Positions 2,150 to 16,203 of a stretch of DNA of 24,000 nucleotides are shown piece by piece. Source of the DNA: Tenuifilum thalassicum. Its GTDB lineage: Bacteria; Bacteroidota; Bacteroidia; Bacteroidales; Tenuifilaceae. The notes under the pieces were generated by a model that was not told the DNA's origin, did no database searches, and saw only the letters and a list, made by a program, of their open reading frames with translations. The stretch covers positions 766,581 through 790,580 of the forward strand of contig NZ_CP041345.1 of the NCBI RefSeq assembly GCF_013265555.1, read 5' to 3'. A program made the translations under genes and the position numbers. Within the stretch, counting starts at the first letter, position 1. Each line of letters opens with the position of its first letter.

Positions 2150-2530
2150 ATCGGACTCATCCCGATATTTCCGACTCATTCATCTAACTTCCTCTAACTT
2201 CCTTTAACTCCCTCATATTCCTAAACAAGAGAAGCCTTGACTACGCTCGGCATGACAAAAACTTCCAATTTCTTCCGATTATTTCCGAGTCATTCCGAGT
2301 CATTCTTTTAACTTCATCTAACTTCTTCTAACTCCCTTTAACTTCTTCTAACTCCTTCATATTCCTCAACAAGAGATGCTTCGGCAAGCTCAGCATGACA
2401 AAGGCTTCCGACTACTTCCGAATATTTCAGAATCATTCCGAATTATTCCTCTAACTTCCTCTAACTTCTTTTAACTTCCTCATATTCTTCAACCAGAAAT
2501 GCCTAGATTACGTTCGGCAAGACAAAGGCT
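2150..2530. repeat. Non-coding nested tandem repeat: 3 degenerate units (periods 143 and 124 nt) built from 10-nt and ~11-nt sub-repeats
   Basis: The anchor CATATTC(C/T) recurs at 2214, 2357 and 2481. Each unit carries 3, 5 and 3 copies of YYTAACTYCY, several TTCCGANTNATT copies, and a conserved tail ...AACAAGAGA(A/T)GC...GCATGACAAA. The third unit overlaps the last ~15 codons of the WYL gene. Confidence 0.75.
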
Positions 2531-3517
2531 TTCCTTAAGAGTATTCTGGAATTGTGCTCGAACATCTTCTGGTTCAAGAACCTCAATATCGGGACAAAAG
2601 TTTAGGAGAAGCGCAAAAAGCTCTTTATTAGGAATTACTTTAATACGAACCTCCAACTTATCGCCCACAAAACGGTGTTTTTGAGAGGGGTGTAATGGTT
2701 TTGTAATAACATATGGTGCCCTAGTTTTTGAGAAAAGCAGCTTAATTTCAACGGGTTCGGCATCGGCATAACGGGTCACGCCAACAATATCGTAAAAAAA
2801 CTCCTCCCAATCGGTTTCGGATTGAATATACTTAAGGGATGTCACCTCGATGCTAATAATTCTATCAAGAGCTAGATTCCAGTAAGGGTTATCCTCTTCC
2901 TGGTTGAATCCTAAAACAAACCACCTGTTATTGTACTCTTTTAGGTGGTATGGATGGTAGTGGAAGTATTTTGGTTCCTCGGCAAAATAGCGTTTATAAC
3001 CAATCCTAAGAACCTGCTGGTTAATAATGGCATTAAACAAAACGCCAAAATGCTCAAGTCCCTTCAAATCGCGATTAAAATCGAAGCTAACAACAGGATT
3101 GCCATTGCTTTGTAATCCGCCAAATTTATGTTGAAGCAGCGGTACAACCTCATACACCCAATCAAATTGAGGCATACCCTCAAATCGGGCTAAAACATCA
3201 ATGGCCGCCTTAATCTTTTCTATTTCTTCCTGTTTGATTGGAATATTATTTATGGAAAACTCCGGATTCGAATAGCGATAGAATTTTCTCCTGCCGTCTT
3301 GTATTCGTTCTATGTCGGCACTAAAACCCTCGCTGCTCTCCATGAAGTTTATATCATCTAGAACCTGTCTCTTGCTTACAGATTTAGAGGGATCAATATC
3401 TTGTAATACCTTATTAATCTCCTCAATTAAATCCTCAACGTAATACTTTCTGCCAGTATTCCTGAAGCATCGATCTAATACCTGATATCGAATTAAGGCA
3501 TTCTTGTTAATTGGCAT
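2489..3517 (-). CDS. WYL-domain transcriptional regulator (N-terminal HTH + WYL)
   Basis: The start MPINKNALIRYQVLDRCFRNTGRKYYVEDLIEEI is typical of Bacteroidetes HTH-WYL proteins. A WYL-like core is present (HLKEYNNRWFVLGFNQEEDNPYWNLALDRIISIEV). I prefer the ATG at 3517 over the track start at 3622, which would overlap the divergent gene at 3611. Confidence 0.8.
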   Translation of the reverse strand: MPINKNALIRYQVLDRCFRNTGRKYYVEDLIEEINKVLQDIDPSKSVSKRQVLDDINFMESSEGFSADIERIQDGRRKFYRYSNPEFSINNIPIKQEEIEKIKAAIDVLARFEGMPQFDWVYEVVPLLQHKFGGLQSNGNPVVSFDFNRDLKGLEHFGVLFNAIINQQVLRIGYKRYFAEEPKYFHYHPYHLKEYNNRWFVLGFNQEEDNPYWNLALDRIISIEVTSLKYIQSETDWEEFFYDIVGVTRYADAEPVEIKLLFSKTRAPYVITKPLHPSQKHRFVGDKLEVRIKVIPNKELFALLLNFCPDIEVLEPEDVRAQFQNTLKESLCLAERNLGISG

Positions 3518-3554
3518 AGCTGTATGAATTGATAAATATAAAGGTAATGAATTT

Positions 3555-3590
3555 TGCAGAAAGAGTGCACAGGTTGATATTTTCTTTGTA
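3555..3590 (+). promoter_or_regulatory. Operator/promoter module, degenerate copy (TGCAGAAAGAGTGCA-N8-TATTTTCTTTGTA)
   Basis: Same 15-8-13 nt architecture as the two near-identical copies at 4632-4667 and 15735-15770. It lies in the divergent WYL / paralog-1 intergenic region, 21 nt upstream of ATG 3611. Confidence 0.4.
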
Positions 3591-3610
3591 TCGTTCAGAT
3601 TCAAAATGCC

Positions 3611-4075
3611 ATGAGAAAGCAACTAATACTAATGGTTTTAATAATGGGCGCGGTAGGATGGGAAAGTCATGCTCAGATATTGTTGAACATTGACGAAATT
3701 ATTGAAAAATACGGACACCCTTTCGACAAAGAAAGTATTAACGACTCTATGTATTATATGGTTTATAGTTATGACCAGATTTATAATAAGCAAACCGATA
3801 TTATGCGCCTGAAAAGCGATTACGTAAAGCTGGGTATCATAAACAATCAAACAACCGAAATATGCATTGTGGTACTTCAGGAATACCCCTCTGCGTATTT
3901 ATATAAGGCTATAAATGTATTAAACAGCTATATGTATAAGCCAAAAAAAAACGACTTTATTTGGGTAAATCGTAAAAAGGGTACGGTAAAACGTATACTA
4001 TATGAAAAAGGGATGCAAACTTTTTATGTTGCAGAGTTATACTATGGTAATCACGTGATGGACATGTTGAAATAA
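3611..4075 (+). CDS. Small secreted protein, paralog 1 of 3 (unknown function)
   Basis: 154 aa with an N-terminal signal peptide (MRKQLILMVLIMGAVGWESHAQ). It shares the motif IDEIIEKYGHP and overall layout with the next two ORFs. Confidence 0.7.
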   Translation: MRKQLILMVLIMGAVGWESHAQILLNIDEIIEKYGHPFDKESINDSMYYMVYSYDQIYNKQTDIMRLKSDYVKLGIINNQTTEICIVVLQEYPSAYLYKAINVLNSYMYKPKKNDFIWVNRKKGTVKRILYEKGMQTFYVAELYYGNHVMDMLK

Positions 4076-4134
4076 TAAGAATTCAGGAAGGTAGAAAGGA
4101 TAAATTTTATTTAAATAAAACAACACCATAAACC

Positions 4135-4611
4135 ATGAGAAAGATTACACTAATAATGCTATTTCTCCTATCTGCTAAGGTGGGGCTATCGCAACTCTGG
4201 TTAACAGAAGATGAACTTATTAAAAGGTATGGAAAGCCTATTGAAAAGGGATATTTTGAAAAGATCCCTGATTTAGATTTGTACTACCTGATATTTGATT
4301 CAGAAAACGTAAACAAAACAAGCGAATACAAGTGTGAATACCTGAAAGCCTTCTTGCCAATAGATACTTCCATAGTTAACTATTGCTTTTGGGTTGAAGC
4401 TAAGTATCCTATTAAATACATCTACTCCTTCATTGAAAACTACAATAAAAAATATAGTAGACCTTTAAAGGAAGACTTGAAATGGATTGACTATAACGAA
4501 GCTGTTTGGCACTATTTATACATTACCGCTGAAGAAGACTACTTTTTAGCTGTAGATATGGTTGACTTTGAATTGCTAATAAGGGAAGAAAAAAGTGATT
4601 ATGACTACTAA
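4135..4611 (+). CDS. Small secreted protein, paralog 2 of 3
   Basis: 158 aa with signal peptide MRKITLIMLFLLSAKVGLSQ and the motif EDELIKRYGKP. Confidence 0.7.
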   Translation: MRKITLIMLFLLSAKVGLSQLWLTEDELIKRYGKPIEKGYFEKIPDLDLYYLIFDSENVNKTSEYKCEYLKAFLPIDTSIVNYCFWVEAKYPIKYIYSFIENYNKKYSRPLKEDLKWIDYNEAVWHYLYITAEEDYFLAVDMVDFELLIREEKSDYDY

Positions 4612-4631
4612 AAATAATTTGTATCAAACTA

Positions 4632-4667
4632 TGCAGAAAGGCTGCATCATTCACCCCCAACTTTGCA
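4632..4667 (+). promoter_or_regulatory. Operator/promoter module TGCAGAAAGGCTGCA-N8-CCCCAACTTTGCA
   Basis: The 15-mer palindromic box and the 13-mer containing a -7-like AACTTTG are identical to the minus-strand copy at 15735-15770, with the same 8-nt spacer length. It lies 25 nt upstream of ATG 4692. Confidence 0.6.
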
Positions 4668-4691
4668 ACGTAACAATTAAATCATGAAGCC

Positions 4692-5102
4692 ATGAATAAG
4701 ATACTGATAGCTTTGTTTGTACTGACATGGGCGCTTCCTGGCAAAACACAGCTAGGATATACCCTTGAGGAAATCATACAAAAGTATGGCGATAACTACT
4801 CCGTAGGATATAATTCCGATAGCTTATTCTATGCCATTTTTGAAAATGTGAAAGCAGGTCGTTCCGAAAAGAAAACTGTTATGATAACTTTATTCAATTC
4901 CGATAGAAAAGATGCCATTTGCATTGGCAAATTGATTGTTTATAGTCTTGATGAGATCAATGAAGCAGTCGACAAGTTTAATAAGAAATATGTTAAGAAA
5001 TCGGAGTTGGAGTGGAAGGACTACGAAAATGGTATTTTATACATTATTGATATTGACAGAAACAGAGGCTTATTTACAATAACAAGTTTAATCGATTTAT
5101 AG
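4692..5102 (+). CDS. Small secreted protein, paralog 3 of 3
   Basis: 136 aa with signal peptide MNKILIALFVLTWALPGKTQ and the motif LEEIIQKYGDNY. Confidence 0.7.
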   Translation: MNKILIALFVLTWALPGKTQLGYTLEEIIQKYGDNYSVGYNSDSLFYAIFENVKAGRSEKKTVMITLFNSDRKDAICIGKLIVYSLDEINEAVDKFNKKYVKKSELEWKDYENGILYIIDIDRNRGLFTITSLIDL

Positions 5103-5104
5103 CC

Positions 5105-5434
5105 ATGGGTGTATATGCAGTTAATTTGGATGAGGGCACCTTTACCCAGGACAAGGATACCTACAAGAATAGGTTAATGGACCCCCAATGGAAGACACGC
5201 AAGGAGGAAATACTAAAGCGCGATGGATATCGGTGTGTGGTTTGTGGTAGTACCGAAAACCTTGAGGTGCATCATAGGCAGTATCATTACCTGATTGCAG
5301 CAGGCCGTTACCGCGACCCTTGGGATTACGACGACCACATACTGATTACACTTTGCAAGGAATGCCACTCCGATGGACATACGCATTATAAAGTACCAGT
5401 AATATTTATTGATAAAACTAATAAAATTGTATAG
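5105..5434 (+). CDS. Small HNH (His-Me finger) nuclease-like protein
   Basis: 109 aa. The sequence RDGYRCVVCGSTENLEVHHRQYH...ITLCKECHSDGH gives CxxC...HH...CxxCH zinc/HNH spacing. The start is 2 nt after the preceding stop. Confidence 0.75.
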   Translation: MGVYAVNLDEGTFTQDKDTYKNRLMDPQWKTRKEEILKRDGYRCVVCGSTENLEVHHRQYHYLIAAGRYRDPWDYDDHILITLCKECHSDGHTHYKVPVIFIDKTNKIV

Positions 5435-5436
5435 CT

Positions 5437-6024
5437 ATGGCAATATTCAACCTATTTAGAAGAAAAATAAGCAACGAAGCAGCAAATAGCTCAACTGCGG
5501 CATCTGCCACCTCACCGGTTGCAACTAACCAACCACCAAGGGTTCCTAAAGAGATTTTCATTGAAGAAAATGGCCCAGAAAACAGGTCGTTAACTTTCAA
5601 ATCTAATGGGCAAAAGGTGGGAATTGATCTAATATACGACTACCTACAGGTGGACTTTGAACGTAAAGGCTATGAGGATGCCATCACCCATCCTGATGAA
5701 AGCTACAAAAACGACAATATCAATCTTTTAAAGATGGACCTGGCCATATTAGTTCAAAAAGTTGACAGCTACTACACCGAGCGGCTAAAGGAGCTCGATT
5801 TCCACATCGAATCGCGGAAACGTTCAGGACTGGTTGACCTGGTAATGGAGCTAAACTCGCAAAAAGAAGTTGTTCTAAGCCATATGGAAAGACTAAATGG
5901 CATTAAGAACGACATTGAGACTGGTAACGGAATAACCAAACGGGTTGAGCTATCGTATCAGCGTGGTTTTTCACGTGGTCTTTCGTCCATAACTAAATCA
6001 AAATTTATGAACCAAAAACTTTAG
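5437..6024 (+). CDS. Hypothetical protein (low-complexity N-terminus, predicted coiled-coil)
   Basis: 195-aa ORF starting 2 nt after the HNH stop. I recognise no family motif. Confidence 0.6.
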   Translation: MAIFNLFRRKISNEAANSSTAASATSPVATNQPPRVPKEIFIEENGPENRSLTFKSNGQKVGIDLIYDYLQVDFERKGYEDAITHPDESYKNDNINLLKMDLAILVQKVDSYYTERLKELDFHIESRKRSGLVDLVMELNSQKEVVLSHMERLNGIKNDIETGNGITKRVELSYQRGFSRGLSSITKSKFMNQKL

Positions 6025-6038
6025 CTATGTGTGTCGAT

Positions 6039-6117
6039 TGCAGGGGGCTCCAAACTATTTGGATAGTTTGAGAAATGAAAAGTGTGTATTGTTAAAACTT
6101 GTTCCCCCTGCATTTTT
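6039..6117 (+). terminator. Long structured terminator-like element
   Basis: TGCAGGGGG (6039-6047) pairs with CCCCCTGCA (6104-6112) and is followed by T5. An inner hairpin CAAACTA/TAGTTTG is present. It lies directly after the 195-aa gene. Confidence 0.4.
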
Positions 6118-6159
6118 AAATTATTAAACTATTCACATTAACTTTAATATTATTGTAAA

Positions 6160-7116
6160 ATGAGAGATCTTTGGCTAAAAACAAGCTGCTTTTTCACTGG
6201 ATTCAACTACCAAATAGTAAAAAACTCGAGTGAGGCTGCTGCTAAAATGGTAAAAAAGAACATGTCGGCGCTAATCATTATCAGCATACTTTGGGCATTT
6301 ATTGGATTTAACTTTACTTCGCGCTACTTGCATGGCAATACGCTAACCTCGCTTATTGTAGCATTGGTAATGGTTGTTGTAGTTATTCAAATTGAAAGGC
6401 AGATACTGTTAAATGTAACAAACTCAAAAGGTGCAATTACTTTTCGAACTATTATTGGTGTAATCATGGCCTTTATTGGTTCAATAATTATTGACCAAAT
6501 CATTTTCAAGGACGATATAGAGCAAGGCCAGATGGCAACAGTACAGCAAAGGGTTAACCGGATTTTACCCATGAAGACTACCGAGCTGAAAGAGCAAATA
6601 GCTCAGATAGCCAATGCAATAGAAAGCAAAGAGGCGGAAAGAAATCAGATATTAGTGGAACTGGGCAAGAATCCTACCATCAGCACCCCAACCTCCGTTG
6701 GCAAATACGAAAAGGATAGTACCGGCAAAATGGTTATGGTTGGCCGGGAGGTAACCTACCAGTCGGTACCTAACCCTAAAGCTAGCTTGATCCCCCAGAT
6801 TGATGACCAGCTCGCTCAGCTAAGAACCGATTTGGCAAAAAAGGAGGAGTTGCTGCTAAACATTCGCAGCGAGATTGAAAAGGAGATGCAATCAAAAACA
6901 GGTTTCCTCGACGAGCTAACCGCTCTTTATAAAATTGCTACCTCCTCTTTTGTATCAATTTTTGTTTGGATGCTATTTTTCCTCTTTTTCGCATCAATGG
7001 AGCTGTTCATATTGGTAAATAAAATTAGCGATAACCATACCGATTACGAGGATATTATAATGCACCAAATGAGGGTCAGAATGAAGCAGCTTGAGAAGCT
7101 ATCGGAAACTGTTTAA
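6160..7116 (+). CDS. DUF4407-like membrane protein (N-terminal TM helices, central coiled-coil, C-terminal TM)
   Basis: 318 aa. The start LWLKTSCFFTGFNYQIVKNSSEAAAKM is followed by hydrophobic helices, a long charged coiled-coil and a C-terminal hydrophobic segment (FVSIFVWMLFFLFFASMELFILV). This matches my recollection of the DUF4407 layout; no HMM was run. Confidence 0.55.
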   Translation: MRDLWLKTSCFFTGFNYQIVKNSSEAAAKMVKKNMSALIIISILWAFIGFNFTSRYLHGNTLTSLIVALVMVVVVIQIERQILLNVTNSKGAITFRTIIGVIMAFIGSIIIDQIIFKDDIEQGQMATVQQRVNRILPMKTTELKEQIAQIANAIESKEAERNQILVELGKNPTISTPTSVGKYEKDSTGKMVMVGREVTYQSVPNPKASLIPQIDDQLAQLRTDLAKKEELLLNIRSEIEKEMQSKTGFLDELTALYKIATSSFVSIFVWMLFFLFFASMELFILVNKISDNHTDYEDIIMHQMRVRMKQLEKLSETV

Positions 7117-7296: not shown

Positions 7297-8808
7297 TTAA
7301 ATTACTTTTATTGCTTTCCATCCTAAAGTTTTTTTCTTTTTGTTATAGGATAAAATAGCCATACCCTTTAACAGTTGTCCATCATTTAGATTATTTTTTT
7401 TAATAATTATTGGTTCAACAAAGATGTTTTCAATGAAACCAAAGTTTTGTGATGGGTTTATTTTAAGTTTTCCTTCAAAACTCTTTAATGCATCACATGG
7501 TATATCAGCGTCAACTTTTTTTGCTGACAGAATGTTATAATATCCATCCCTGCCATTTCCATTAAAACGAACCTTTAAAAGGTCCCCAATTTGAGGATTG
7601 GAAATGTAATCTGAATACCTAAAAAAACCATATTTGTTTTTATCCTTCACAAAATTCAGTATTTTCTTGTTTTCATTTACAAACTCGACTACAACCAATT
7701 CTTCAGGTACATCCTGAAACAATATTTCCTCTGCTTTCTTGATGTGAATTGAATACAAATCTTGGTTGTCATTTTTAGCTGAGGCAGATTTATACCACTC
7801 TTGTTCTGTCCATTGCGCTATTTGGTTCGGCAGCTTCCATTCGTGTTTCTCTCTTGCTTCTATAATTTTCTGGATTTCCGTTTTTGCTTCATTGTACATT
7901 TGCTTTTCTATGAGCAATTCGGCAAATGTTTGACGAAGTTTAACCAAAAAGTCTTCAGGCGTTTTCAGACTCAATGCTTTGCAGTAGCAAGCAAATTTGA
8001 TATTTTTGTCATAAGAGAAAATTTCTGCCATCAGTTCCCAAACCCAAAATTCATTTCTTTTTTGTTTCGCAAAAGGCAAAAATGCGGACAAAACATTTTC
8101 ATCGCTACCTAATGATAATAGGAGTTTTGCTTTGAAATATGGGGGATATTGATACTCTGGATGTTTTTCTATCAAAGAATCAAGTTTGGGCAAAAATGAT
8201 TGAATCTTTTCCTTATCAATCACTCTTTCTTGTCCAAAAGGATCCAGGGGTTCCCCCTCTAAAAGTTTCTTTGAGTAGGCGATATACGCCTGTTCAGCAA
8301 TAGACATTATTTTTTTTCTATTGTATTCTTCTTTTAAATAGTCTTCGGAGCGAAGGTTATTTAAATCCCACCAGTCAGCAAACTCTAAATACTTTGACCA
8401 GTTTTGATAGCCTTTGTGAAAAGCTTTATAAATAAATGAATATGCTTCTGATGGCTTGGAGAAATGAAAGTCTCTGATAATTTCAAACAACTCATTGATT
8501 TTGTCATAATCAACATGCTCTGTTTTCTGTAATGCAAAAACCAAACTGCCGATTTGCCATGCACAATTGTCAAACACCATTTTTTCATCTTCCGGCAATT
8601 GCAAATTTTTTAGCTTAATGAGATTATCCTTGAAGACCTCATACGAATCCGGTTGAGCATTTTTTTTGAGATAGTCATAATACACCCATGCAGCTGCCCG
8701 CTTGTTCCAGATGTTTTCGGGTTCTGCTTCCAAAGCTTGATTTGCCATTTGCAAAGCTTCATCAAGCTTTCCCGCTTGTCGTAGTTCTTTGATTTCTCTA
8801 AATGACAT
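7297..8808 (-). CDS. TPR-like repeat protein with two C-terminal cold-shock/S1-like OB-fold modules
   Basis: 503 aa. The N-terminus has helical TPR-like repeats (GKLDEALQMANQALEAEPENIWNKRAAAWVYYDY...). The C-terminus reads ...NKYGFFRYSDYISNPQIGDLLKVRFNGNGRDGYYNILSAKKV and ...FEGKLKINPSQNFGFIENIFVEPIIIKKNNLNDGQLLKGMAILSYNKKKKTLGWKAIKV, which follows the CSD pattern G..k...GFGFI...diFV....l..Gq.v. Its start overlaps the helicase stop by 11 nt. Confidence 0.7.
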   Translation of the reverse strand: MSFREIKELRQAGKLDEALQMANQALEAEPENIWNKRAAAWVYYDYLKKNAQPDSYEVFKDNLIKLKNLQLPEDEKMVFDNCAWQIGSLVFALQKTEHVDYDKINELFEIIRDFHFSKPSEAYSFIYKAFHKGYQNWSKYLEFADWWDLNNLRSEDYLKEEYNRKKIMSIAEQAYIAYSKKLLEGEPLDPFGQERVIDKEKIQSFLPKLDSLIEKHPEYQYPPYFKAKLLLSLGSDENVLSAFLPFAKQKRNEFWVWELMAEIFSYDKNIKFACYCKALSLKTPEDFLVKLRQTFAELLIEKQMYNEAKTEIQKIIEAREKHEWKLPNQIAQWTEQEWYKSASAKNDNQDLYSIHIKKAEEILFQDVPEELVVVEFVNENKKILNFVKDKNKYGFFRYSDYISNPQIGDLLKVRFNGNGRDGYYNILSAKKVDADIPCDALKSFEGKLKINPSQNFGFIENIFVEPIIIKKNNLNDGQLLKGMAILSYNKKKKTLGWKAIKVI

Positions 8809-11005
8809 AGTCAGCTTCTTTTAGGTGGTTTACAATAGATTTGATTTTAGCAAGAAGTTCGGGTGAGTTACATTTCTTTTCTAGTGGAAGCACGCGCCCA
8901 AAAAAACCTGCCTTATCGTATTCAAAGTCAATTACGCAAGACTGTTCATGGTTTTTTATAGTATACCTTTCACGGTATTCGAGATGCTGAATGTTGGAAA
9001 TGACTTCACCGTTTGATAAACCTCGGCTAATAAAATCGAAAAGATTTTTCAAGAATGGCTTTTCTTCTTCAATTGCTATATCAAATTCTATTTGTGTTAA
9101 AATACCCTCGGCATTATTTCTATTTACTAAAATCGGAGTAGCACATTCTAATATTTTGGCGATGGTTTCAAATAATTCATCAGAGTTGGTTTGTGCAGGA
9201 AGCTTTTGAAAATTATTATTAAAAACATTCTGCCCATTAACCCAGTATTTGAAACCCGCTGTTTGTGATTCTCTTTTGAAGATATATCGTACTTCATACC
9301 CAACTTTCTGCCAAAATTTAATATTAATATTTTGCTTTCGCAAATAATACCATCTGTGAATGAAATGGTCTTGAATTGTTATTGGTTCATTTTCTAAACC
9401 AAATTTTTCAAGTTCGGGCAAAACTTCTTTAATATTTATTTCAGTATTAATATTTGTTTGTCCAGTTAAGTCATTATATGCTTGTTGAATTTTTGTATCA
9501 ACAAAACTCATCTCAGAAAAAGAAGAGAAGTATGGTGGATTAATACAGAATAACCTTTTAGAAGCACGTGTTACTGCCGTGTAGGCCCAACGGAAAAATT
9601 CAGGATTTGTCTTTCCAGTTCTATTATGTGGCGATTCATAAAAGTTAAACTTATTGTTGATCCCTTTATCCCAAAAAACAAAAGCATTTGGCCATTCACC
9701 GCCCTGGGCTTTGTGACAGGTTACGGCATAGCCATATTTTAAAAGAATGCAATTGAAATACTCATCTTTGATGATGGCTTCTTTAAATTCTTCAGTACCT
9801 TTTTTGAGGTTGGGGTGCCTTTTTTTGAAATCTACGTAAAGGGCTATTTGTTCATCAGGTGTTAAAGTATTTTCACCGTATAAGTAGTTCTCTAAGATAA
9901 ATCCGTTTATGGTTTTGGGCTGATTTTTTTCATCGGGTAAAATAAGGCCAATTTTTCTCCATGTTAATTTTACGCTTATAGTTTTACCACCTTTTGTGTA
10001 AAAACTTACATCTCTGCTTACAACCGAAGGACTTACTTCTGAAACAATAGCAAACTCACCATTCATGATACCAAGGTAGTAATTGTTTGCGCCAATAACA
10101 ACAGTATCAGATGGTTGTATTGGCAAATCATCCCCAAACTTATCTTTACGGATAACTCGGTTCAAATTAAGAGCTGTTTTGTTTTTATGGCAAATGATTA
10201 TTTTAGGTTCTTGTTGCACATTATAAGTCTCCAAAAATTCCTGATAGGAAGGATTAAAAATATCCTTCTTATTTTCTCTCAAATCAAAGTCATTGAAGTA
10301 GCCCGATGTAAGACACCGTCTTATTTTAGTGGCAGCAATCAAGATGCCATTATTGACCTCTTGACGTTTAACCTCCTTCATTTCCGCTTGAGATACAGAA
10401 ACCTTGTAGGTCTCGCTAATATAATTTGGATCAAGTGCAGGAGAGAAGTTCATTCCAATGGGAGGCAACTGAGATGGGTCTCCTATAAAAATAATTTTGT
10501 TGTTTGTTTCGCATTCTTGAATCCTACTGTAGGAAATAAGATCTCGCAACAAATGACCGCTGCCAAAGCGGAAAAACTCTCCTTGGCTCAAAATATCACT
10601 GACCATTGACGCTTCATCTATTATCAGAACCGAATCATGAACCTCCGGGTTGTTCCTGATTTTATATTGATATAAAAACGAAACATCATTTTCGTTTTCA
10701 CCTTGCTTTATTTCCTGCAACTCTTCAAAGCTGTATATGCCTTTGTGAATGGTGGTAGATTCAAAGCCTGTTTTTTGTTTGATGACTCTTGCTGCTCTGC
10801 CGGTCGGAGCCATTAATTGGTACCTTTTCTCTAAAGATTTAAGATATTCAACCAAGCCTTTGAGTAGGGTTGTTTTACCACTTCCCGCATATCCCTGAAG
10901 GATAAATATTCGCTCATCACTTTCTAAAAAAGCATGAAGCTTTTCCAACGCATTGCGTTGGTCGTTGGTGAGGTTGATATGTTGGAAATGGTTGAAGATT
11001 TTCAT
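8798..11005 (-). CDS. SF1B RecD/Dda-like DNA helicase with ~230-aa C-terminal extension
   Basis: 735 aa. Motifs seen: Walker A GYAGSGKTT, Ia APTGRAA, Walker B IIDEASMV, III IFIGDPSQLPPIG, V TCHKAQGGEW and VI YTAVTRA. There is an ATGA start/stop overlap with the upstream gene. Confidence 0.85.
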   Translation of the reverse strand: MKIFNHFQHINLTNDQRNALEKLHAFLESDERIFILQGYAGSGKTTLLKGLVEYLKSLEKRYQLMAPTGRAARVIKQKTGFESTTIHKGIYSFEELQEIKQGENENDVSFLYQYKIRNNPEVHDSVLIIDEASMVSDILSQGEFFRFGSGHLLRDLISYSRIQECETNNKIIFIGDPSQLPPIGMNFSPALDPNYISETYKVSVSQAEMKEVKRQEVNNGILIAATKIRRCLTSGYFNDFDLRENKKDIFNPSYQEFLETYNVQQEPKIIICHKNKTALNLNRVIRKDKFGDDLPIQPSDTVVIGANNYYLGIMNGEFAIVSEVSPSVVSRDVSFYTKGGKTISVKLTWRKIGLILPDEKNQPKTINGFILENYLYGENTLTPDEQIALYVDFKKRHPNLKKGTEEFKEAIIKDEYFNCILLKYGYAVTCHKAQGGEWPNAFVFWDKGINNKFNFYESPHNRTGKTNPEFFRWAYTAVTRASKRLFCINPPYFSSFSEMSFVDTKIQQAYNDLTGQTNINTEINIKEVLPELEKFGLENEPITIQDHFIHRWYYLRKQNINIKFWQKVGYEVRYIFKRESQTAGFKYWVNGQNVFNNNFQKLPAQTNSDELFETIAKILECATPILVNRNNAEGILTQIEFDIAIEEEKPFLKNLFDFISRGLSNGEVISNIQHLEYRERYTIKNHEQSCVIDFEYDKAGFFGRVLPLEKKCNSPELLAKIKSIVNHLKEADYVI

Positions 11006-12702
11006 GCAAGCAACTTTTGTATGATTTGTGAAACTTGTTCTAATAATATTTTATATCCTTCATAAAAATAAATCTTGTCGCATTCCGTTTTTAAGTTATC
11101 AGTAAGCTTTTTTTCAGAGGGATGAATAAACTCGTTCCTCCTTTTTATAGAATAATAAAGTTGCTGTACATCTTCATCTTTATATTCCAAAAGTTGAAAA
11201 CATAGCCCGGCTACTTTTTCGAATGTTGTGGGTAAATTGTTTTTGAAGTTTGGTGTGTTAGTAAATGTGTATTTATTTTTTTCTTCATCCCATCTATACT
11301 GTTTGAGTTCTTGAGGTCCTTTAATACACCATTTGTTTTCATCATTTTTAAACACGTATTCACCAGCAATTAGTTCTAAACACTTAAATAAGGATATATA
11401 TGCATAGGCAAAATCATCTTTGGAATTTGCTTTTTCATACATATTGTATGAAAGTTGTAAAATCTTAATAAGCTCTTTACCAATGTGCTTATCGAATTTT
11501 TTATTTTTTATGGCTGTTGTTAAAGATTTCGATAATTGATTTATCGATTGGTTTACAGGCTTTAAATAACTTGCCCGGTTAATAGAACCTTCAACAACCT
11601 GTTTAAGGTTCTTAATATCCTCGGCTACATTAGAATCATCTCTTTTAATAATATATCCGTTAGCACCAAGCCCTTGAACCGACTGGTAATTCCAAATCTT
11701 ATTTGAAGCAGTAGTTATAATTACTTGAATTCCCTTGTTGATTTTTTTTATTTCCTCTAATATCTTGTAACCTGTTAGCTCTTTAGGTTCTTTATTTTCT
11801 TTAAAATCTGAATCGCAAAGCCGTAAATCAAGCAGCACTACATCAGCATCTTCGCATTTCTTTATTGCACGATCAATTATTTCATTTTGACTTAAAGATT
11901 TGAACTCTACTTCCAATATATCAAATTTAATTGTATTATTATTAATGTTATTTTGTAAAAAACACCTGTAAAAATCACCCCAGCCTCTTTTGGCTTCATC
12001 GTCTATTAATAAAACTTTTCCTTTACCGTTTATTAAATATGGGGTACCTTGTTTAGTCTCTGCAACAGGATTTAGTGCTTGATAGTATTTAAAATACAGT
12101 CCCTTTTGTAAATTTTCCTTTACTTCAAGGATATTGTTATCACATTTTAAATAGGTGGACCACCTAAGTAATGCAAGCTCATTATCTATGCTATGATGAG
12201 ATTGATAATTGGCAGGAGGAGATAATTGCAGTCTCTTCAAACATTTTTCCCATTCCGTTTCAGAGATTCGGGGTTTATGCTCTTGAATCAAAATATATTC
12301 ATTTTTCAGTGCATCTCTATCTGTTTTTGCAATATGGAACACTCCAGGTGTAAATAGGATATTTCCTAATTCAGAAAGTTTAGCAATTTGATTCGGTGTT
12401 TCAATACCTATAAAGACTATTGGAACAAGATGATGTCTGAATTCTTTTGTTACCCTGATGTGAGCTGCTACTCTTAAACCGGTTAATTCAAAATAGTTTT
12501 GTTGCGAAAGCGTATAAGGGATAAATATTACATCATAAGCTTTATTCTGAAATGCTTTCGACAAAGAATCATGTAAAAATCTATCCAGTACAAAATTTGA
12601 ATTTTGTGAGGCTTGAGAATAGTCTATAGCGGATTTGTCTCCATGAAAATGATCAGTTAAACTTGTTGGTAAATTATCTCCATGGAATAAGATTGCTTTC
12701 AT
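11002..12702 (-). CDS. Pseudo-receiver + canonical receiver (REC) domain protein with C-terminal helical HEPN-like domain
   Basis: 566 aa. The canonical REC is KVLLIDDE...DVVLLDLRL...IQVIITTAS...ANGYIIK, with the D-D, D, T and K residues all present. The N-terminal ~140 aa is receiver-like without the acidic residues. The C-terminal helical region contains KRRNEFIHPS, i.e. R522-N-x3-H527 (nt 11122-11139), followed by one long terminal helix. Confidence 0.7.
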   Translation of the reverse strand: MKAILFHGDNLPTSLTDHFHGDKSAIDYSQASQNSNFVLDRFLHDSLSKAFQNKAYDVIFIPYTLSQQNYFELTGLRVAAHIRVTKEFRHHLVPIVFIGIETPNQIAKLSELGNILFTPGVFHIAKTDRDALKNEYILIQEHKPRISETEWEKCLKRLQLSPPANYQSHHSIDNELALLRWSTYLKCDNNILEVKENLQKGLYFKYYQALNPVAETKQGTPYLINGKGKVLLIDDEAKRGWGDFYRCFLQNNINNNTIKFDILEVEFKSLSQNEIIDRAIKKCEDADVVLLDLRLCDSDFKENKEPKELTGYKILEEIKKINKGIQVIITTASNKIWNYQSVQGLGANGYIIKRDDSNVAEDIKNLKQVVEGSINRASYLKPVNQSINQLSKSLTTAIKNKKFDKHIGKELIKILQLSYNMYEKANSKDDFAYAYISLFKCLELIAGEYVFKNDENKWCIKGPQELKQYRWDEEKNKYTFTNTPNFKNNLPTTFEKVAGLCFQLLEYKDEDVQQLYYSIKRRNEFIHPSEKKLTDNLKTECDKIYFYEGYKILLEQVSQIIQKLLA

Positions 12703-12807
12703 ATTTTAGCTATGATTTTATTTATTTCTTGGTTAAGTTCTTCAATTGTTTTTGAGCCAATAATGGATTCCAAACTTTCCTTAATTGGTTCTATAGCACG
12801 TGTTAAA

Positions 12808-13191
12808 TTATCCTGTAACAAAAGTTTGCCTGTATGTCATCATTATATTTAATTTCCAATTATCTCCATAGATGAGTTCTGAAATGTGTTCTATTTTATC
12901 TTCCACGTACCTGCGCAAAAATTCAGGTAAAGTATTGTTGTAAAAATCTTTTGAGTTGAGTAGGAAATACGGATATGGTTCAAAGTAGAAAAGTGACTGC
13001 CCAACACCTCCACTAAAAAAGACTAATGGCTTTCTCTTACTCTTACAATGTGAAATTACTGTGTTTATTCCACCATTAGATAAAGATGAACGATGGATAA
13101 TAATTAAGTCATAATCATTCAAAGAGGCAAATTCTTTCTTGTTGAGTTCATCGATCAATTTTCTACATTCTTCATGAAGGCATATAAACAT
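12808..13191 (-). CDS. Receiver-like (flavodoxin-fold-like) hypothetical protein; probably the central fragment of a frameshifted ~194-codon gene
   Basis: 127-aa ORF (DYDLIIIHRSSL...KPLVFFSGGVG pattern). Open fragments in the +1 shifted frames flank it at 13172-13282 and 12699-12836. Both fragments are ATGA-coupled to the neighbouring genes (see findings). Confidence 0.55.
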   Translation of the reverse strand: MFICLHEECRKLIDELNKKEFASLNDYDLIIIHRSSLSNGGINTVISHCKSKRKPLVFFSGGVGQSLFYFEPYPYFLLNSKDFYNNTLPEFLRRYVEDKIEHISELIYGDNWKLNIMMTYRQTFVTG

Positions 13192-13278
13192 TTTCTATAC
13201 TATTAATTTTCTCAATACGTTCTTTATTAAGATACTGTTCTTGCCTTCCTGGACGGTCTTCTAATAAAAGTACTTTTT

Positions 13279-15456
13279 TCATGGTAAATAGAATTTTAAT
13301 ATGTAGGTAAAGCCTTTAACTATGCAATCTTCCTTTTTTATTTCGGCAATATGGAATTGGCTGTTTTCATGAGATATTTTAACATTAGGGTATAAATATT
13401 TTAACACAAAATCACCATCAGTAAAATGAGCTGCCACTTCAAAATCACAAATACTTATGAGGGGTTTAATTACCTCTTCCAAATCACCACTAGGCTTCAT
13501 GAATTTAGAGTGCTCTGAATTTTTAAGAGGGTGTGAGCCTATGTGAATTATTTTTAATAAAATCAAATTCTGGTTAGATAATCGATTACATGAAATCTCA
13601 ACTTCACGGTTTTCTGTTCTTGTTTGTATCATTCGGAAAATCCGTCTTATGGCTTTTAATACAGGCACGGTGTAAACTGTAAACGACTCATACTTTAGAG
13701 TTTCAAGACCACTCACCTTGAATTCTCTTAATTCCTGCAATACAAGATTATTTATTTCATAATAAAAATCTCTTGTTTCTTCTCTAAATGCAATTTCTCT
13801 TTTAAACAGATTAATAATATCTCCAAAGAATCTAATTTCCTTGCCATACATTAACCTATATTTTTGATTGGCTTCTGCCGATACTAAATCATCAGAAATA
13901 GACATTTCAAAAGGTGTCTTTTTTAAAGCATGTGGTTTATTGTCATAATTTTCCACTATCCAATTAATAACACTATCTGGGTATTGCCAACCGATTTTTA
14001 TACCATATTTTCCCCATTTAAATGGAATTTCCTTCCCTTCTTTATTTGTTGATATTTTTTTTTGAAATACAAATGGGTAAATTACATTCCACCAAAGATT
14101 GGCATTATATTTCTGAAGAAAGACAAACTCTTCATATCGTGAATTAACAGCTTTAAAATAATTTTCTGTAGATGAATTACTTTCGGAATTGATATCGGGA
14201 GAAGTATCCCAAAAATGTGTAAGCCATTTCATAATTGGATCTGAAGTAAACTGCTCAAGTTTATTGATGACTAATTTTGGGTCGTGAAATATTGCTTTTT
14301 TATCTTCTGACAGCACATTAAGGTGTTCTTGGGTTCTGTTTTGTTCTATTATCTCATTATTTTCAATAGGATTTTCAGATTTAGTCAATCTATCAAACCT
14401 CTTCTTCAGCCCTTGATAGGTTGAATCCTTGAATCCCTTCACCATCTTCAGGAATTCCAATTTCCCGTCCAACACATTCACCAAATGTGCATTCATGTTT
14501 TTCACATGCCCTTTATCGGCAATGTAATCCCGTTTAAAAATCTGTTCCGCTTTTTCATAGCCATACTTTTCCCAATAGTACAGCCACATACGGATTTGCT
14601 TTATATACCTCCTGTGGACATTTACCTTTTCGTTTACAATCAATCCTGTTGCTTCCTGGCGATAACCCGCTTTTTGTAAACGTGTTTTATTAGGGTTGAT
14701 GACAAGTTTTTGATCTTCTTCAATAATTCGCTTTAGCTCCTTGATAAAATCATCATCTTTATAAATATTGTGAAGTGAAGAAAAGGTTATGTCATCTGCA
14801 TATCTAGTATATGTCGCACCAAATCGCTTGGCAAGTCCGGTTAGTCTGCGATCAAGTTTTTTGCAAAGAATATTTGTTAAAGTTGGCGATGTAGGGCTAC
14901 CCTGAGGAAGTACTGTTTTTATTTCTCCATCTACTTCTAATGGATGAGTGCAAAGACATGCTAATAGAAAAGCCAAAGATTCTTTGTCTCCTTTTAGGTT
15001 AAATGGCTCATACATAAAACCTATCTTCACCCTATTTCGGTCAAATGAATGAAAAAAATCTTTTAAATCAATATTATAGACATAATTTTGCCCTAAATGT
15101 TTTTTTGCATTATCGACAATTGATTTATTCAAAACAAATCCTGTAGCGGCTTTATGCGGTTCATAAATACACTGCAGTACAAAATTGAGAACCCGAAGAA
15201 TAGACTTTAACCCACTTACTGGTGAATGAATTATCCTGTCTTCACCAGACTTTTTCTTTATGGTAAAAGTCTGATAACGTTTTTTACACAGGTCAGGATT
15301 CGCATAATAAGTCAAGGACTTTTTTTGAAAAGGCATGCTATTTTCACCATAAAGCATTTTTTTTGCATTGTTAAGCAACTTCAATAAATCGTCTTTGCTT
15401 TGCATTTCTGCAAATTGCTTTCTTAATTGCTCTATGTGAACTTTATCTACTTTCAT
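13279..15456 (-). CDS. Retron-type reverse transcriptase with ~350-aa uncharacterised C-terminal extension
   Basis: 725 aa. RT motifs seen: KKKSGEDRIIHSP, NAKKH (retron NAxxH), NIDLKDFFHS, LPQGSPTSPTLTN, YADD (nt 14791-14802), NPNKTR, and RQEATGLIVNEKVNV (position of the retron VTG motif). I see no maturase/endonuclease or DGR-type motifs. Confidence 0.9.
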   Translation of the reverse strand: MKVDKVHIEQLRKQFAEMQSKDDLLKLLNNAKKMLYGENSMPFQKKSLTYYANPDLCKKRYQTFTIKKKSGEDRIIHSPVSGLKSILRVLNFVLQCIYEPHKAATGFVLNKSIVDNAKKHLGQNYVYNIDLKDFFHSFDRNRVKIGFMYEPFNLKGDKESLAFLLACLCTHPLEVDGEIKTVLPQGSPTSPTLTNILCKKLDRRLTGLAKRFGATYTRYADDITFSSLHNIYKDDDFIKELKRIIEEDQKLVINPNKTRLQKAGYRQEATGLIVNEKVNVHRRYIKQIRMWLYYWEKYGYEKAEQIFKRDYIADKGHVKNMNAHLVNVLDGKLEFLKMVKGFKDSTYQGLKKRFDRLTKSENPIENNEIIEQNRTQEHLNVLSEDKKAIFHDPKLVINKLEQFTSDPIMKWLTHFWDTSPDINSESNSSTENYFKAVNSRYEEFVFLQKYNANLWWNVIYPFVFQKKISTNKEGKEIPFKWGKYGIKIGWQYPDSVINWIVENYDNKPHALKKTPFEMSISDDLVSAEANQKYRLMYGKEIRFFGDIINLFKREIAFREETRDFYYEINNLVLQELREFKVSGLETLKYESFTVYTVPVLKAIRRIFRMIQTRTENREVEISCNRLSNQNLILLKIIHIGSHPLKNSEHSKFMKPSGDLEEVIKPLISICDFEVAAHFTDGDFVLKYLYPNVKISHENSQFHIAEIKKEDCIVKGFTYILKFYLP

Positions 15457-15474
15457 ATCAAATTATTTGAAAGA

Positions 15475-15728
15475 CTTTGAAACACCTGCCCTGATACTCT
15501 ATAAGTATTAAAGACCAAAAAAAAAAAATTTAATTAGGGGTTATTCTTAGTCAGCGTTATTACTGGCGTCAATGTAAATCTCAGTTCTGAAGTTATGCTC
15601 AGAAACTGTGCTCATTAATGCCACTCTGACATTCATTCCAACAAAAGTTGGAATAAGATGCCGATCATTGCCTAAACAAATTTAGGCCAGCACCCACAAA
15701 TCAATATCTTTAGGCAAGTGTTTCAAAG
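15475..15728 (-). ncRNA. Candidate retron-like msr/msd ncRNA (structured RT-associated RNA)
   Basis: A 16-bp long-range inverted repeat with one G-U pair closes the region: minus-strand CUUUGAAACACUUGCC (15728-15713) pairs with GGCAGGUGUUUCAAAG (15490-15475). Internal hairpins lie at 15670-15687, 15635-15654 and 15582-15608. A promoter-like module sits directly upstream, and the RT ATG is 19 nt downstream. Confidence 0.55.
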
Positions 15729-15734
15729 AACTTC

Positions 15735-15770
15735 TGCAAAGTTGGGGATTATTTGTGCAGCCTTTCTGCA
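15735..15770 (-). promoter_or_regulatory. Operator/promoter module TGCAGAAAGGCTGCA-N8-CCCCAACTTTGCA driving the ncRNA/RT operon
   Basis: Minus-strand sequence is identical in both boxes and in spacing to the copy at 4632-4667. The -7-like AACTTTG places a predicted start within a few nt of the a1 arm (15728). Confidence 0.6.
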
Positions 15771-16097: not shown

Positions 16098-16203
16098 ATC
16101 GACCCCTCCCAACCTCCCCTCTCAGGGGAGGCTTTTTTTCATGGATAGAAATTGCGTTATTTTTCCCCTCTCCTCACAGGAGAGGGGAAAGGGGTGAGGT
16201 CGC
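16098..16203. repeat. REP-like GC-rich hairpin element (copy 1)
   Basis: Hairpin CCTCCCCT-CTC-AGGGGAGG plus T7 lies at 16113-16139. Hairpin CCCCTCTCC-TCACA-GGAGAGGGG followed by AAAGGGGTGAGGTCG lies at 16165-16203. The second part recurs at 23469-23510. Confidence 0.6.

Follow-up and report, generated by a model that had tools for sequence, protein, structure and literature searches.

The operon and its parts

We analysed a 24,000-nucleotide (nt) stretch of the Tenuifilum thalassicum genome (contig NZ_CP041345.1, positions 766,581 to 790,580 of the forward strand), which is referred to here as the window and is numbered from its first letter. An earlier note on this DNA had drawn attention to a protein of 566 amino acids (aa), encoded by the minus-strand open reading frame (ORF) 11002-12702 and proposed to be a receiver-gated RNase effector of the HEPN class. 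The protein, a phospho-receiver fused to a probable HEPN RNase as judged from motifs, alignments and a structural model, lies in an operon with a 725-aa protein (ORF 13279-15456, minus strand) that joins a retron-type reverse transcriptase (RT) to a domain of the histidine-kinase type. Taken together, the locus looks like an uncharacterised defence system in which a retron would act on its killing component, the 566-aa protein, by way of two-component signalling. Its parts, all on the minus strand, are given here from upstream to downstream:

15465..15735, minus strand: predicted retron-type noncoding RNA (ncRNA; msr-msd), adjoining the RT start on its upstream side
14302..15456, minus strand: RT domain, residues 1-385 of the 725-aa protein
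13282..14289, minus strand: predicted histidine-kinase-type domain fused to the RT, residues 390-725 of the 725-aa protein
12699..13282, minus strand: middle gene (MID), receiver-like, ~195 aa, broken into three ORFs
12331..12672, minus strand: iREC domain of the 566-aa protein, residues 11-124 (Pfam PF22563)
12028..12300, minus strand: conserved linker of the 566-aa protein, residues 135-225 (alignment)
11587..12027, minus strand: canonical receiver of the 566-aa protein, residues 226-372 (Pfam PF00072)
11005..11586, minus strand: predicted HEPN-like helical domain of the 566-aa protein, residues 373-566 (motif, model)
8798..11005, minus strand: SF1 helicase with a C-terminal TBP-like domain, a TOTE component (Pfam, PADLOC)
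7297..8808, minus strand: protein with TPR, DUF7017 and two S1/CSD (OB-fold) domains, a TOTE component (Pfam, PADLOC)

The comparative set consisted of 83 related loci, onto which part-by-part profiles were mapped; these loci and the window together make up the 84 sources counted below. To read conservation in the 566-aa protein, we aligned 103 full-length homologues, for which the mean column identity is 30%. The database search for this protein yielded 716 homologues, nearly all of them 540-640 aa long and carrying the same iREC and receiver (REC) annotation.

The 566-aa protein joins two receiver domains to a HEPN-like domain

The complete receiver signature claimed in the earlier note is present (IDDE at residues 233-236, LLDLRL at 290-295, ITTAS at 329-333 and YIIK at 350-353), and residues 284-355 match the Pfam family PF00072, Response_reg, with 30.2 bits, a score equal to the cut-off. 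These motifs supply a canonical pocket made up of D234/D235, the acceptor D292, T331/A332 and K353, in which D235, D292, A332 and K353 are invariant across the 103 homologues; a profile of the receiver segment matches the solved receivers Spo0F, CheY, NarL and LuxO in an alignment that brings the acceptor Asp and the Lys into register. The degenerate receiver-like domain said to precede it is also there, and it corresponds at residues 11-124 to the Pfam family PF22563, iREC, an 'Inactive Receiver domain' (E=2e-36; 124.9 bits vs. a cut-off of 27), with neither the DD pair nor an acceptor Asp found at the equivalent strands on inspection of the sequence. Between the two receivers runs a linker that a profile search found in 84 of 84 sources; it holds an invariant H170, N174 and W181, which belong to the motif SHHSIDNE..LLRW.

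The C-terminal domain carries the motif RRNEFIH (residues 521-527, nt 11122-11142; R522/N523/H527 at nt 11122-11139). R522 and H527 are invariant in the 103 homologues, and N523 and E443 each reach a conservation of 90% or more; K496 is a further marked residue of the domain, beside E443 and R522-N523-x3-H527. An RNx3-5H motif was found within the last 130 residues of 117 of 120 homologues, the remaining 3 being truncated. The C-terminal tail is divergent, many homologues aligning over only 68-80% of the query, and the tails that the domain profile missed still have R[NSHK]x3-5H 30-60 residues before their end. Judged from these alignments, both the RNxxxH motif and the signature of the receiver are real and lie far beyond chance, and such strictly invariant R, H and E residues are typical of a catalytic site.

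An AlphaFold2 model of the C-terminal domain, built from an alignment of 34 such domains, reached a predicted local distance difference test (pLDDT) score of 96.1 and a predicted TM-score (pTM) of 0.91. The region had been described as all-helical and as closing with one helix of ~39 aa; the helical character is borne out by the modelled bundle, but the bundle holds a small beta-hairpin insert, and its last helix is ~31 residues long and kinked (535-545 and 547-565). R522 and N523 are modelled at a helix end, with H527 right after it and the terminal helices following. A Foldseek search of this model against the PDB gave as best matches Csm6 (5yjc_B, prob 0.80) and the HEPN protein AF_0298 (2hsb, prob 0.84), and further top matches were the HEPN toxins 5yep, 7ae6 and 6m6u, the SO_3166 HEPN toxin included.

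At the sequence level, the last 190 residues of the 566-aa protein matched no Pfam family, HEPN families included. Divergent members of the family, scanned singly, gave sub-threshold matches to five HEPN families (E=1e-5 to 0.05), namely Csm6 HEPN (6.4e-4), RiboL-PSP (1.3e-5), MAE_28990, LA2681 and AbiU2, and the aligned stretch ran from the conserved-Glu helix to RNxxxH; other weak Pfam matches of the domain were to MauJ and DUF2913. A profile run against 1.84 billion representative proteins picked up 461, essentially all with the same architecture. By these comparisons the C-terminal domain is a dedicated, fast-evolving family of predicted HEPN-like type, and although each single match to HEPN is non-significant, the predicted assignment is well supported by their convergence. 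The central claim of a receiver-gated HEPN RNase effector, with the RNase as a predicted activity, is consistent with the invariant pocket, the RNxxxH motif with its Glu, the structural model and the sub-threshold Pfam matches.

A retron RT with its predicted ncRNA

The RT half of the 725-aa protein matches Pfam RVT_1 (E=1.9e-18) and has YADD at residues 219-222; its nearest PADLOC models are the retron RTs XI, XII and I-C (E=1e-85 to 3e-98), types that belong to a clade with C-terminal fusions (PMC7736814). Directly upstream of the RT start lies an inverted repeat of 16 nt (15475-15490 / 15713-15728, 94% complementary). The inverted-repeat search places the two flanking elements of a retron ncRNA, both on the minus strand, as follows:

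about 15713-15733, minus strand: putative a1 repeat
about 15470-15490, minus strand: putative a2 repeat

The ncRNA region retains 72-84% nucleotide identity in more than 15 loci, the proteins of which share only 40-60% identity. RNAalifold, applied to 14 loci, folded the region into a long-range a1/a2 helix and two stem-loops, with 42 pairs of which 21 carry compensatory changes, the a1/a2 helix included. Rfam, searched at gathering thresholds, returned no RNA family anywhere in the window. The conservation and covariation mark the upstream RNA as a predicted retron msr-msd ncRNA, and the RT is a true retron RT. The sequence immediately upstream of the ncRNA, up to about 15800, contains a small conserved hairpin, GTGCAG...CTGCAC, as well as a TTTG-containing stretch resembling a Bacteroidota promoter.

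A histidine-kinase-type domain is fused to the RT

The earlier note had stated that the operon contains no histidine kinase, a statement that did not survive the analysis of the RT protein, residues 390-723 of which match the Pfam family PF22561, HisKin-conflict (E=1.6e-84), described in Pfam as 'Histidine Kinase domain observed in conflict contexts'. Because this label is itself a curator's inference, we tested the fold independently. An AlphaFold2 model of residues 388-725 (pLDDT 92.6, pTM 0.91; 22-sequence alignment) has as its best Foldseek match CusS (7zp0, E=5e-4), a histidine-kinase catalytic core, followed by CpxA, an EnvZ chimera, DesK, PhoQ, VraS and HprS (all with prob ~1.0, CusS included), and other GHKL ATPases rank behind these histidine-kinase cores. 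A candidate phosphorylation site, His414 (nt 14215-14217), does not vary among 73 sequences. As regards family and modelled fold, the statement that the operon has no kinase is refuted.

A homologue search with the kinase sub-sequence alone returned 6 proteins. Across scores of homologues of the full protein the RT half is 75-84% identical, vs. ~25-55% for the kinase half, whether fused or adjacent, and this contrast in sequence divergence suggests that the two halves are under very different selective regimes.

The middle gene is receiver-like and carries two frameshifts in the window

The earlier note had reported a split gene upstream of the 566-aa ORF, and the alignment of orthologues bears this out: in tblastn, intact orthologues (a 194-aa protein) align full length to the window in three successive frames, -1, -2 and -3, over the segments 13282-13187, 13185-12811 and 12827-12702. 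The two frameshifts, near 13186 and near 12820, each fit one extra base in a 3-nt run. At the same position in related loci MID orthologues are intact and 194-209 aa long. Both frameshifts fall within the 585 nt of MID and the rest of the operon, ~7.6 kb with four neighbouring genes, is intact, a confinement that makes random sequencing error an unlikely cause; the broken MID is either a pseudogene or the product of a pair of assembly errors. Since MID is frameshifted twice, the module is possibly disabled in this genome, and this copy of the system may be inactive.

MID has no Pfam or PADLOC match, and a PDB-sequence profile search with it gave nothing meaningful. Its consensus, IxLIDDR...IxxHxS...LVxFSGG (L001:7420-8004 and 52 orthologues, alignment A6), keeps the acidic pair and the Ser of a receiver and places an invariant His where the acceptor Asp is expected; a profile-profile match of MID to receivers (hhalign) is weak, with a probability of 24%. 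We considered MID as a histidine phosphotransfer (Hpt) protein and rejected this, as it looks alpha/beta and receiver-like by its motifs, unlike the four-helix Hpt, and no other Hpt protein was found in the operon. The count of three receiver-like modules given in the earlier note is on these grounds reasonable, with the likeness of MID to receivers resting on the motifs and the weak hhalign match, and the stated lack of an Hpt protein likewise stood; only the accompanying statement on the kinase fell.

The RT occupies a swappable sensor position

The gene order kinase, MID, iREC-linker-REC-HEPN is nearly universal in the 83 related loci: the kinase domain was found in 80 of the 84 sources and MID in 78. 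In these loci RT and kinase form one fusion protein, or the RT has a gene of its own immediately upstream of the kinase. There are, however, six loci with ample upstream sequence and no RT, and in RT-less relatives the kinase is fused instead to TPR (L044), ankyrin (L035, L045, L051, L053 and L059) or BspA-type LRR (L056) repeats, with MID and the REC-HEPN gene retained. As the repeats fill the place of the RT in these loci, the RT occupies what we refer to here as a swappable sensor position. Most occurrences of the kinase-MID-REC-HEPN cassette are in Bacteroidota, and others come from Campylobacterota and further lineages.

This arrangement bears on the source of the activating signal, which the earlier note had ascribed to the RT, the helicase or the cDNA rather than to a classical kinase, or else to a host kinase. 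The presence of a dedicated kinase-type domain in 80 of 84 sources speaks against leaving the kinase out, and the position of the RT, at the sensor end of that kinase, speaks for the RT; the RT or the cDNA is therefore likely to supply the activating signal, via the kinase fusion.

The downstream TOTE pair is separable from the cassette

The two genes downstream of the 566-aa ORF are assigned with high scores. The helicase-TBP protein matches Pfam AAA_30, UvrD_C_2 and TBP-TOTE (E=1.2e-36) and the PADLOC model PDC-M16A (E=0), and the TPR-S1/CSD protein matches Pfam TPR_19, DUF7017, S1CSD-TOTE-1 and S1CSD-TOTE-2 and the model PDC-M16B (E=1.7e-249); the scores for TPR_19, both S1CSD-TOTE families and TBP-TOTE exceed their cut-offs. 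The start of the helicase gene overlaps the stop of the 566-aa gene by 4 nt, and the two genes are translationally coupled. TOTE conflict systems are named for their TPR, OB, TBP and Effector components (PMC12458937, citing Aravind, Iyer and Burroughs 2022), and the present cluster combines TPR, OB (S1/CSD) and TBP domains with a putative effector.

Among the 51 loci with sufficient flanks on both sides, at least one TOTE gene was found in 22 of 44 RT-bearing loci vs. 1 of 7 scored RT-less loci, the lone RT-less case being probably a missed split RT; with these small numbers the association of the TOTE pair with the RT is not significant (Fisher p=0.11). In Echinicola pacifica (L001) the trio of kinase, MID and REC-HEPN genes stands without the TOTE pair.

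Proposed mechanism and alternatives

Retron effectors are restrained by the complex of the RT with its multicopy single-stranded DNA (msDNA) and are freed once that complex is perturbed; HEPN RNases require dimerisation to build their active site, and receivers commonly dimerise upon phosphorylation. Bringing this general knowledge of retrons, HEPN domains and receivers together with the domain assignments, the conservation, the models, the synteny and the ncRNA covariation, we favour, with moderate confidence, the reading that the 566-aa protein provides the output of a defence module in which a retron is coupled to two-component signalling. In such a module the RT and msDNA would form the sensor part of the kinase, and infection would perturb the RT-msDNA complex and so change phosphotransfer. 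The phosphate would pass from His414 to Asp292 of the receiver, possibly through MID or with its assistance, and phosphorylation of the receiver would promote dimerisation, such that two HEPN domains could meet and form a composite R-x4-H RNase site, as they do in Csm6, RNase L and Ire1. Cleavage of RNA might then lead to growth arrest or death of the infected cell, that is, to abortive infection. The polarity could run either way, with phosphorylation as the ON or the OFF state; we weakly favour ON, as a broken MID beside an intact HEPN gene would then be easier to tolerate.

A more specific form of this proposal, to which we give somewhat less than even credence, is that the RT-msDNA feeds a true His-Asp phosphorelay, in which phosphate would run from the fused kinase, through or together with MID and its invariant His, to the receiver that licenses the HEPN RNase, with the same cassette being reused under ankyrin, TPR and LRR sensors. 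If the relay reading is true, this modular 'immune two-component system' would be without an experimentally characterised precedent.

Several observations weigh against the module as we read it. On the side of the output domain, the Foldseek search against the PDB returned nothing at E<=0.001 (top E=0.08-1, TM=0.3-0.47), so that the structural check that the earlier note had called for gave a confident helical model with HEPN proteins at the head of the list but with E-values of 0.08 and above; a PDB-sequence profile search with the HEPN-like domain gave nothing meaningful, and the HEPN Pfam matches all lie below their gathering scores. On the side of the kinase, His414 adjoins a low-confidence loop of the monomer model, with no obvious long DHp helix; no N-box Asn is conserved in helix 596-611, the first GHKL helix; and the G1/G2 boxes are atypical, with N/G/D at position 640, a conserved Ser after it, and a G657 that is 81% conserved. 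These box readings are based on the alignment and on the secondary structure of the model, rather than on structural superposition. A PDB-sequence profile search with the kinase domain matched no kinase, and given the atypical boxes and this lack of a sequence match to solved kinases, ATP-dependent autophosphorylation is not assured. The two MID frameshifts in the window count on the same side, as does the fact that no description of the module, and no biochemical or genetic data on it, was found in the searchable literature, a scope to which the Aravind 2022 review does not belong.

The atypical boxes, the absent N-box Asn and the failure to match solved kinases in sequence would all be expected if the kinase-like domain were a pseudokinase or scaffold, in which case the receiver would respond to acetyl phosphate, to a host kinase or to phosphorylation-independent contacts with the RT-kinase protein and MID. 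This is essentially what the earlier note had proposed. We nevertheless judge it quite improbable, since His414 and the entire phospho-pocket of the receiver are invariant, the kinase domain is linked to the receiver protein in nearly all of the sources, and in structure it comes closest to true histidine-kinase cores, with other GHKL ATPases ranking lower. The reverse logic deserves more weight, although we still regard it as unlikely: a kinase bound to RT-msDNA may keep the receiver phosphorylated (or may dephosphorylate it) and so hold the HEPN domain off, until loss or modification of the msDNA in infection frees the RNase. The resemblance to the restraint that RT-msDNA exerts on other retron toxins, as generally understood, speaks for such an arrangement, and the RT-kinase fusion and the conserved ncRNA fit either polarity. 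A broken relay component should then be toxic, yet MID is broken here and the HEPN gene intact, an objection that is weak and that becomes moot if MID stands outside the relay.

There is also the question of whether the C-terminal domain kills at all. Its ties to HEPN, structural as well as sequence-based, are weak, the helicase gene is coupled to its own, and the TOTE partners carry TBP and S1/CSD domains that bind nucleic acids; it might therefore be a HEPN-like domain that binds or processes the retron RNA or msDNA, or one that regulates the TOTE proteins as the real effectors. Notwithstanding, the TOTE pair is missing from roughly one in two RT-bearing loci and from the loci with a swapped sensor, the RxxxxH domain being present throughout, and the strict R, H and E invariance noted above is what catalytic sites typically show; we therefore hold a function of this kind to be very improbable. 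Set against these alternatives, the retron-coupled two-component module with a predicted RNase output remains the reading that we prefer.

Other features of the window

On the far side of the TOTE genes, within window 2489-7116, a WYL-WCX regulator (2489-3622, minus strand) lies opposite a cluster of six genes whose products are mostly unknown; among them are a DUF4407 protein (6160-7116) and a small protein of HNH/ZorE-like type (5105-5434). This region may be a second defence module beside the retron operon. At the other end of the operon, window 16115-16190 contains G+C-rich perfect and near-perfect palindromes, TTTCCCCTCTCCT/AGGAGAGGGGAAA and TCCCCTCTCAGGGGAGG, which sit in an A+T-rich spacer between the retron and TetR/efflux genes and could be terminators or REP-like elements.

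Comparison with known systems

The presence of iREC, HisKin-conflict, TBP-TOTE and S1CSD-TOTE in Pfam indicates that neighbourhoods of this kind have already been catalogued by computational work on conflict systems, and the families iREC and HisKin-conflict stem from the same body of work as TOTE. What is absent from Pfam, PADLOC v2 and the 2020 retron classification is the HEPN assignment, the retron ncRNA, the His-bearing MID and the swapping of sensors; PADLOC v2, in particular, has no model for the receiver-HEPN or MID proteins. As the domain families are already in Pfam, the novelty is mechanistic and experimental and is not that of a first sighting. If the proposal is true, His-Asp phosphotransfer would act inside abortive infection, where it would connect the sensing retron with an effector RNase; the question of how RT-msDNA passes its state to effectors would be addressed, with a signal directly measurable as phosphorylation; and the system would define an immune cassette with a swappable sensor (RT, ANK, TPR or LRR). 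A phosphomimic receiver controlling an RNase would be a simple switch that could be engineered.

Among retron anti-phage systems, of which 13 types were distinguished by Mestre et al. 2020 (PMC7736814), RTs of clade 8 are fused to Toprim (type I-C), protease (XI) or TIR (XII) domains, and type IX is HEPN-associated (PMC7736814). The present system resembles them in its RT with YADD, in its best PADLOC models (XI, XII and I-C), in its upstream ncRNA with a1/a2 and in its operon-encoded effector, and it resembles type IX in that HEPN is already a predicted retron effector there (PMC7736814). Unlike in known retrons, however, the domain fused to the RT is of the histidine-kinase signalling type and is not an effector, the putative effector being reached through a receiver; the words 'kinase', 'receiver' and 'response regulator' have no occurrence in the 2020 classification (PMC7736814). 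The two downstream genes tie the locus to TOTE systems and to the PADLOC candidate PDC-M16 through their matches to TBP-TOTE, S1CSD-TOTE-1/-2, DUF7017 and PDC-M16A/B, but the kinase-MID-REC-HEPN trio, in contrast to TOTE systems, is also found without this pair.

In its overall design the 566-aa protein is comparable to Csm6/Csx1 (CARF-HEPN), RNase L and Ire1 (kinase-like and KEN/HEPN), in all of which a regulatory domain that dimerises or rearranges in response to a signal lies N-terminal to an Rx4-6H HEPN domain, and Csm6 is the best structural match of its HEPN-like domain. It differs from Csm6, RNase L and Ire1 in that the predicted gate is a His-Asp phospho-receiver and not a cyclic-oligoadenylate, 2-5A or kinase dimer switch; its HEPN-like domain, moreover, has a modelled beta-hairpin insert and matches none of the existing Pfam HEPN families at threshold.

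Finally, a kinase-type domain and a canonical receiver encoded in one operon recall two-component systems with enzymatic output, such as CheB and PleD, and the Ambrosia defence system (HATPase and REC) indicates that two-component signalling can serve phage defence (bioRxiv 10.1101/2025.09.30.679545). Relative to both classical two-component systems and Ambrosia, the module described here stands apart in having a cytoplasmic kinase-type domain that is fused to an RT or to ANK/TPR/LRR repeats and that has atypical ATP-binding motifs, in interposing a receiver-like protein with an invariant His, and in ending with a predicted RNase domain as its output in place of a winged helix-turn-helix transcription factor.

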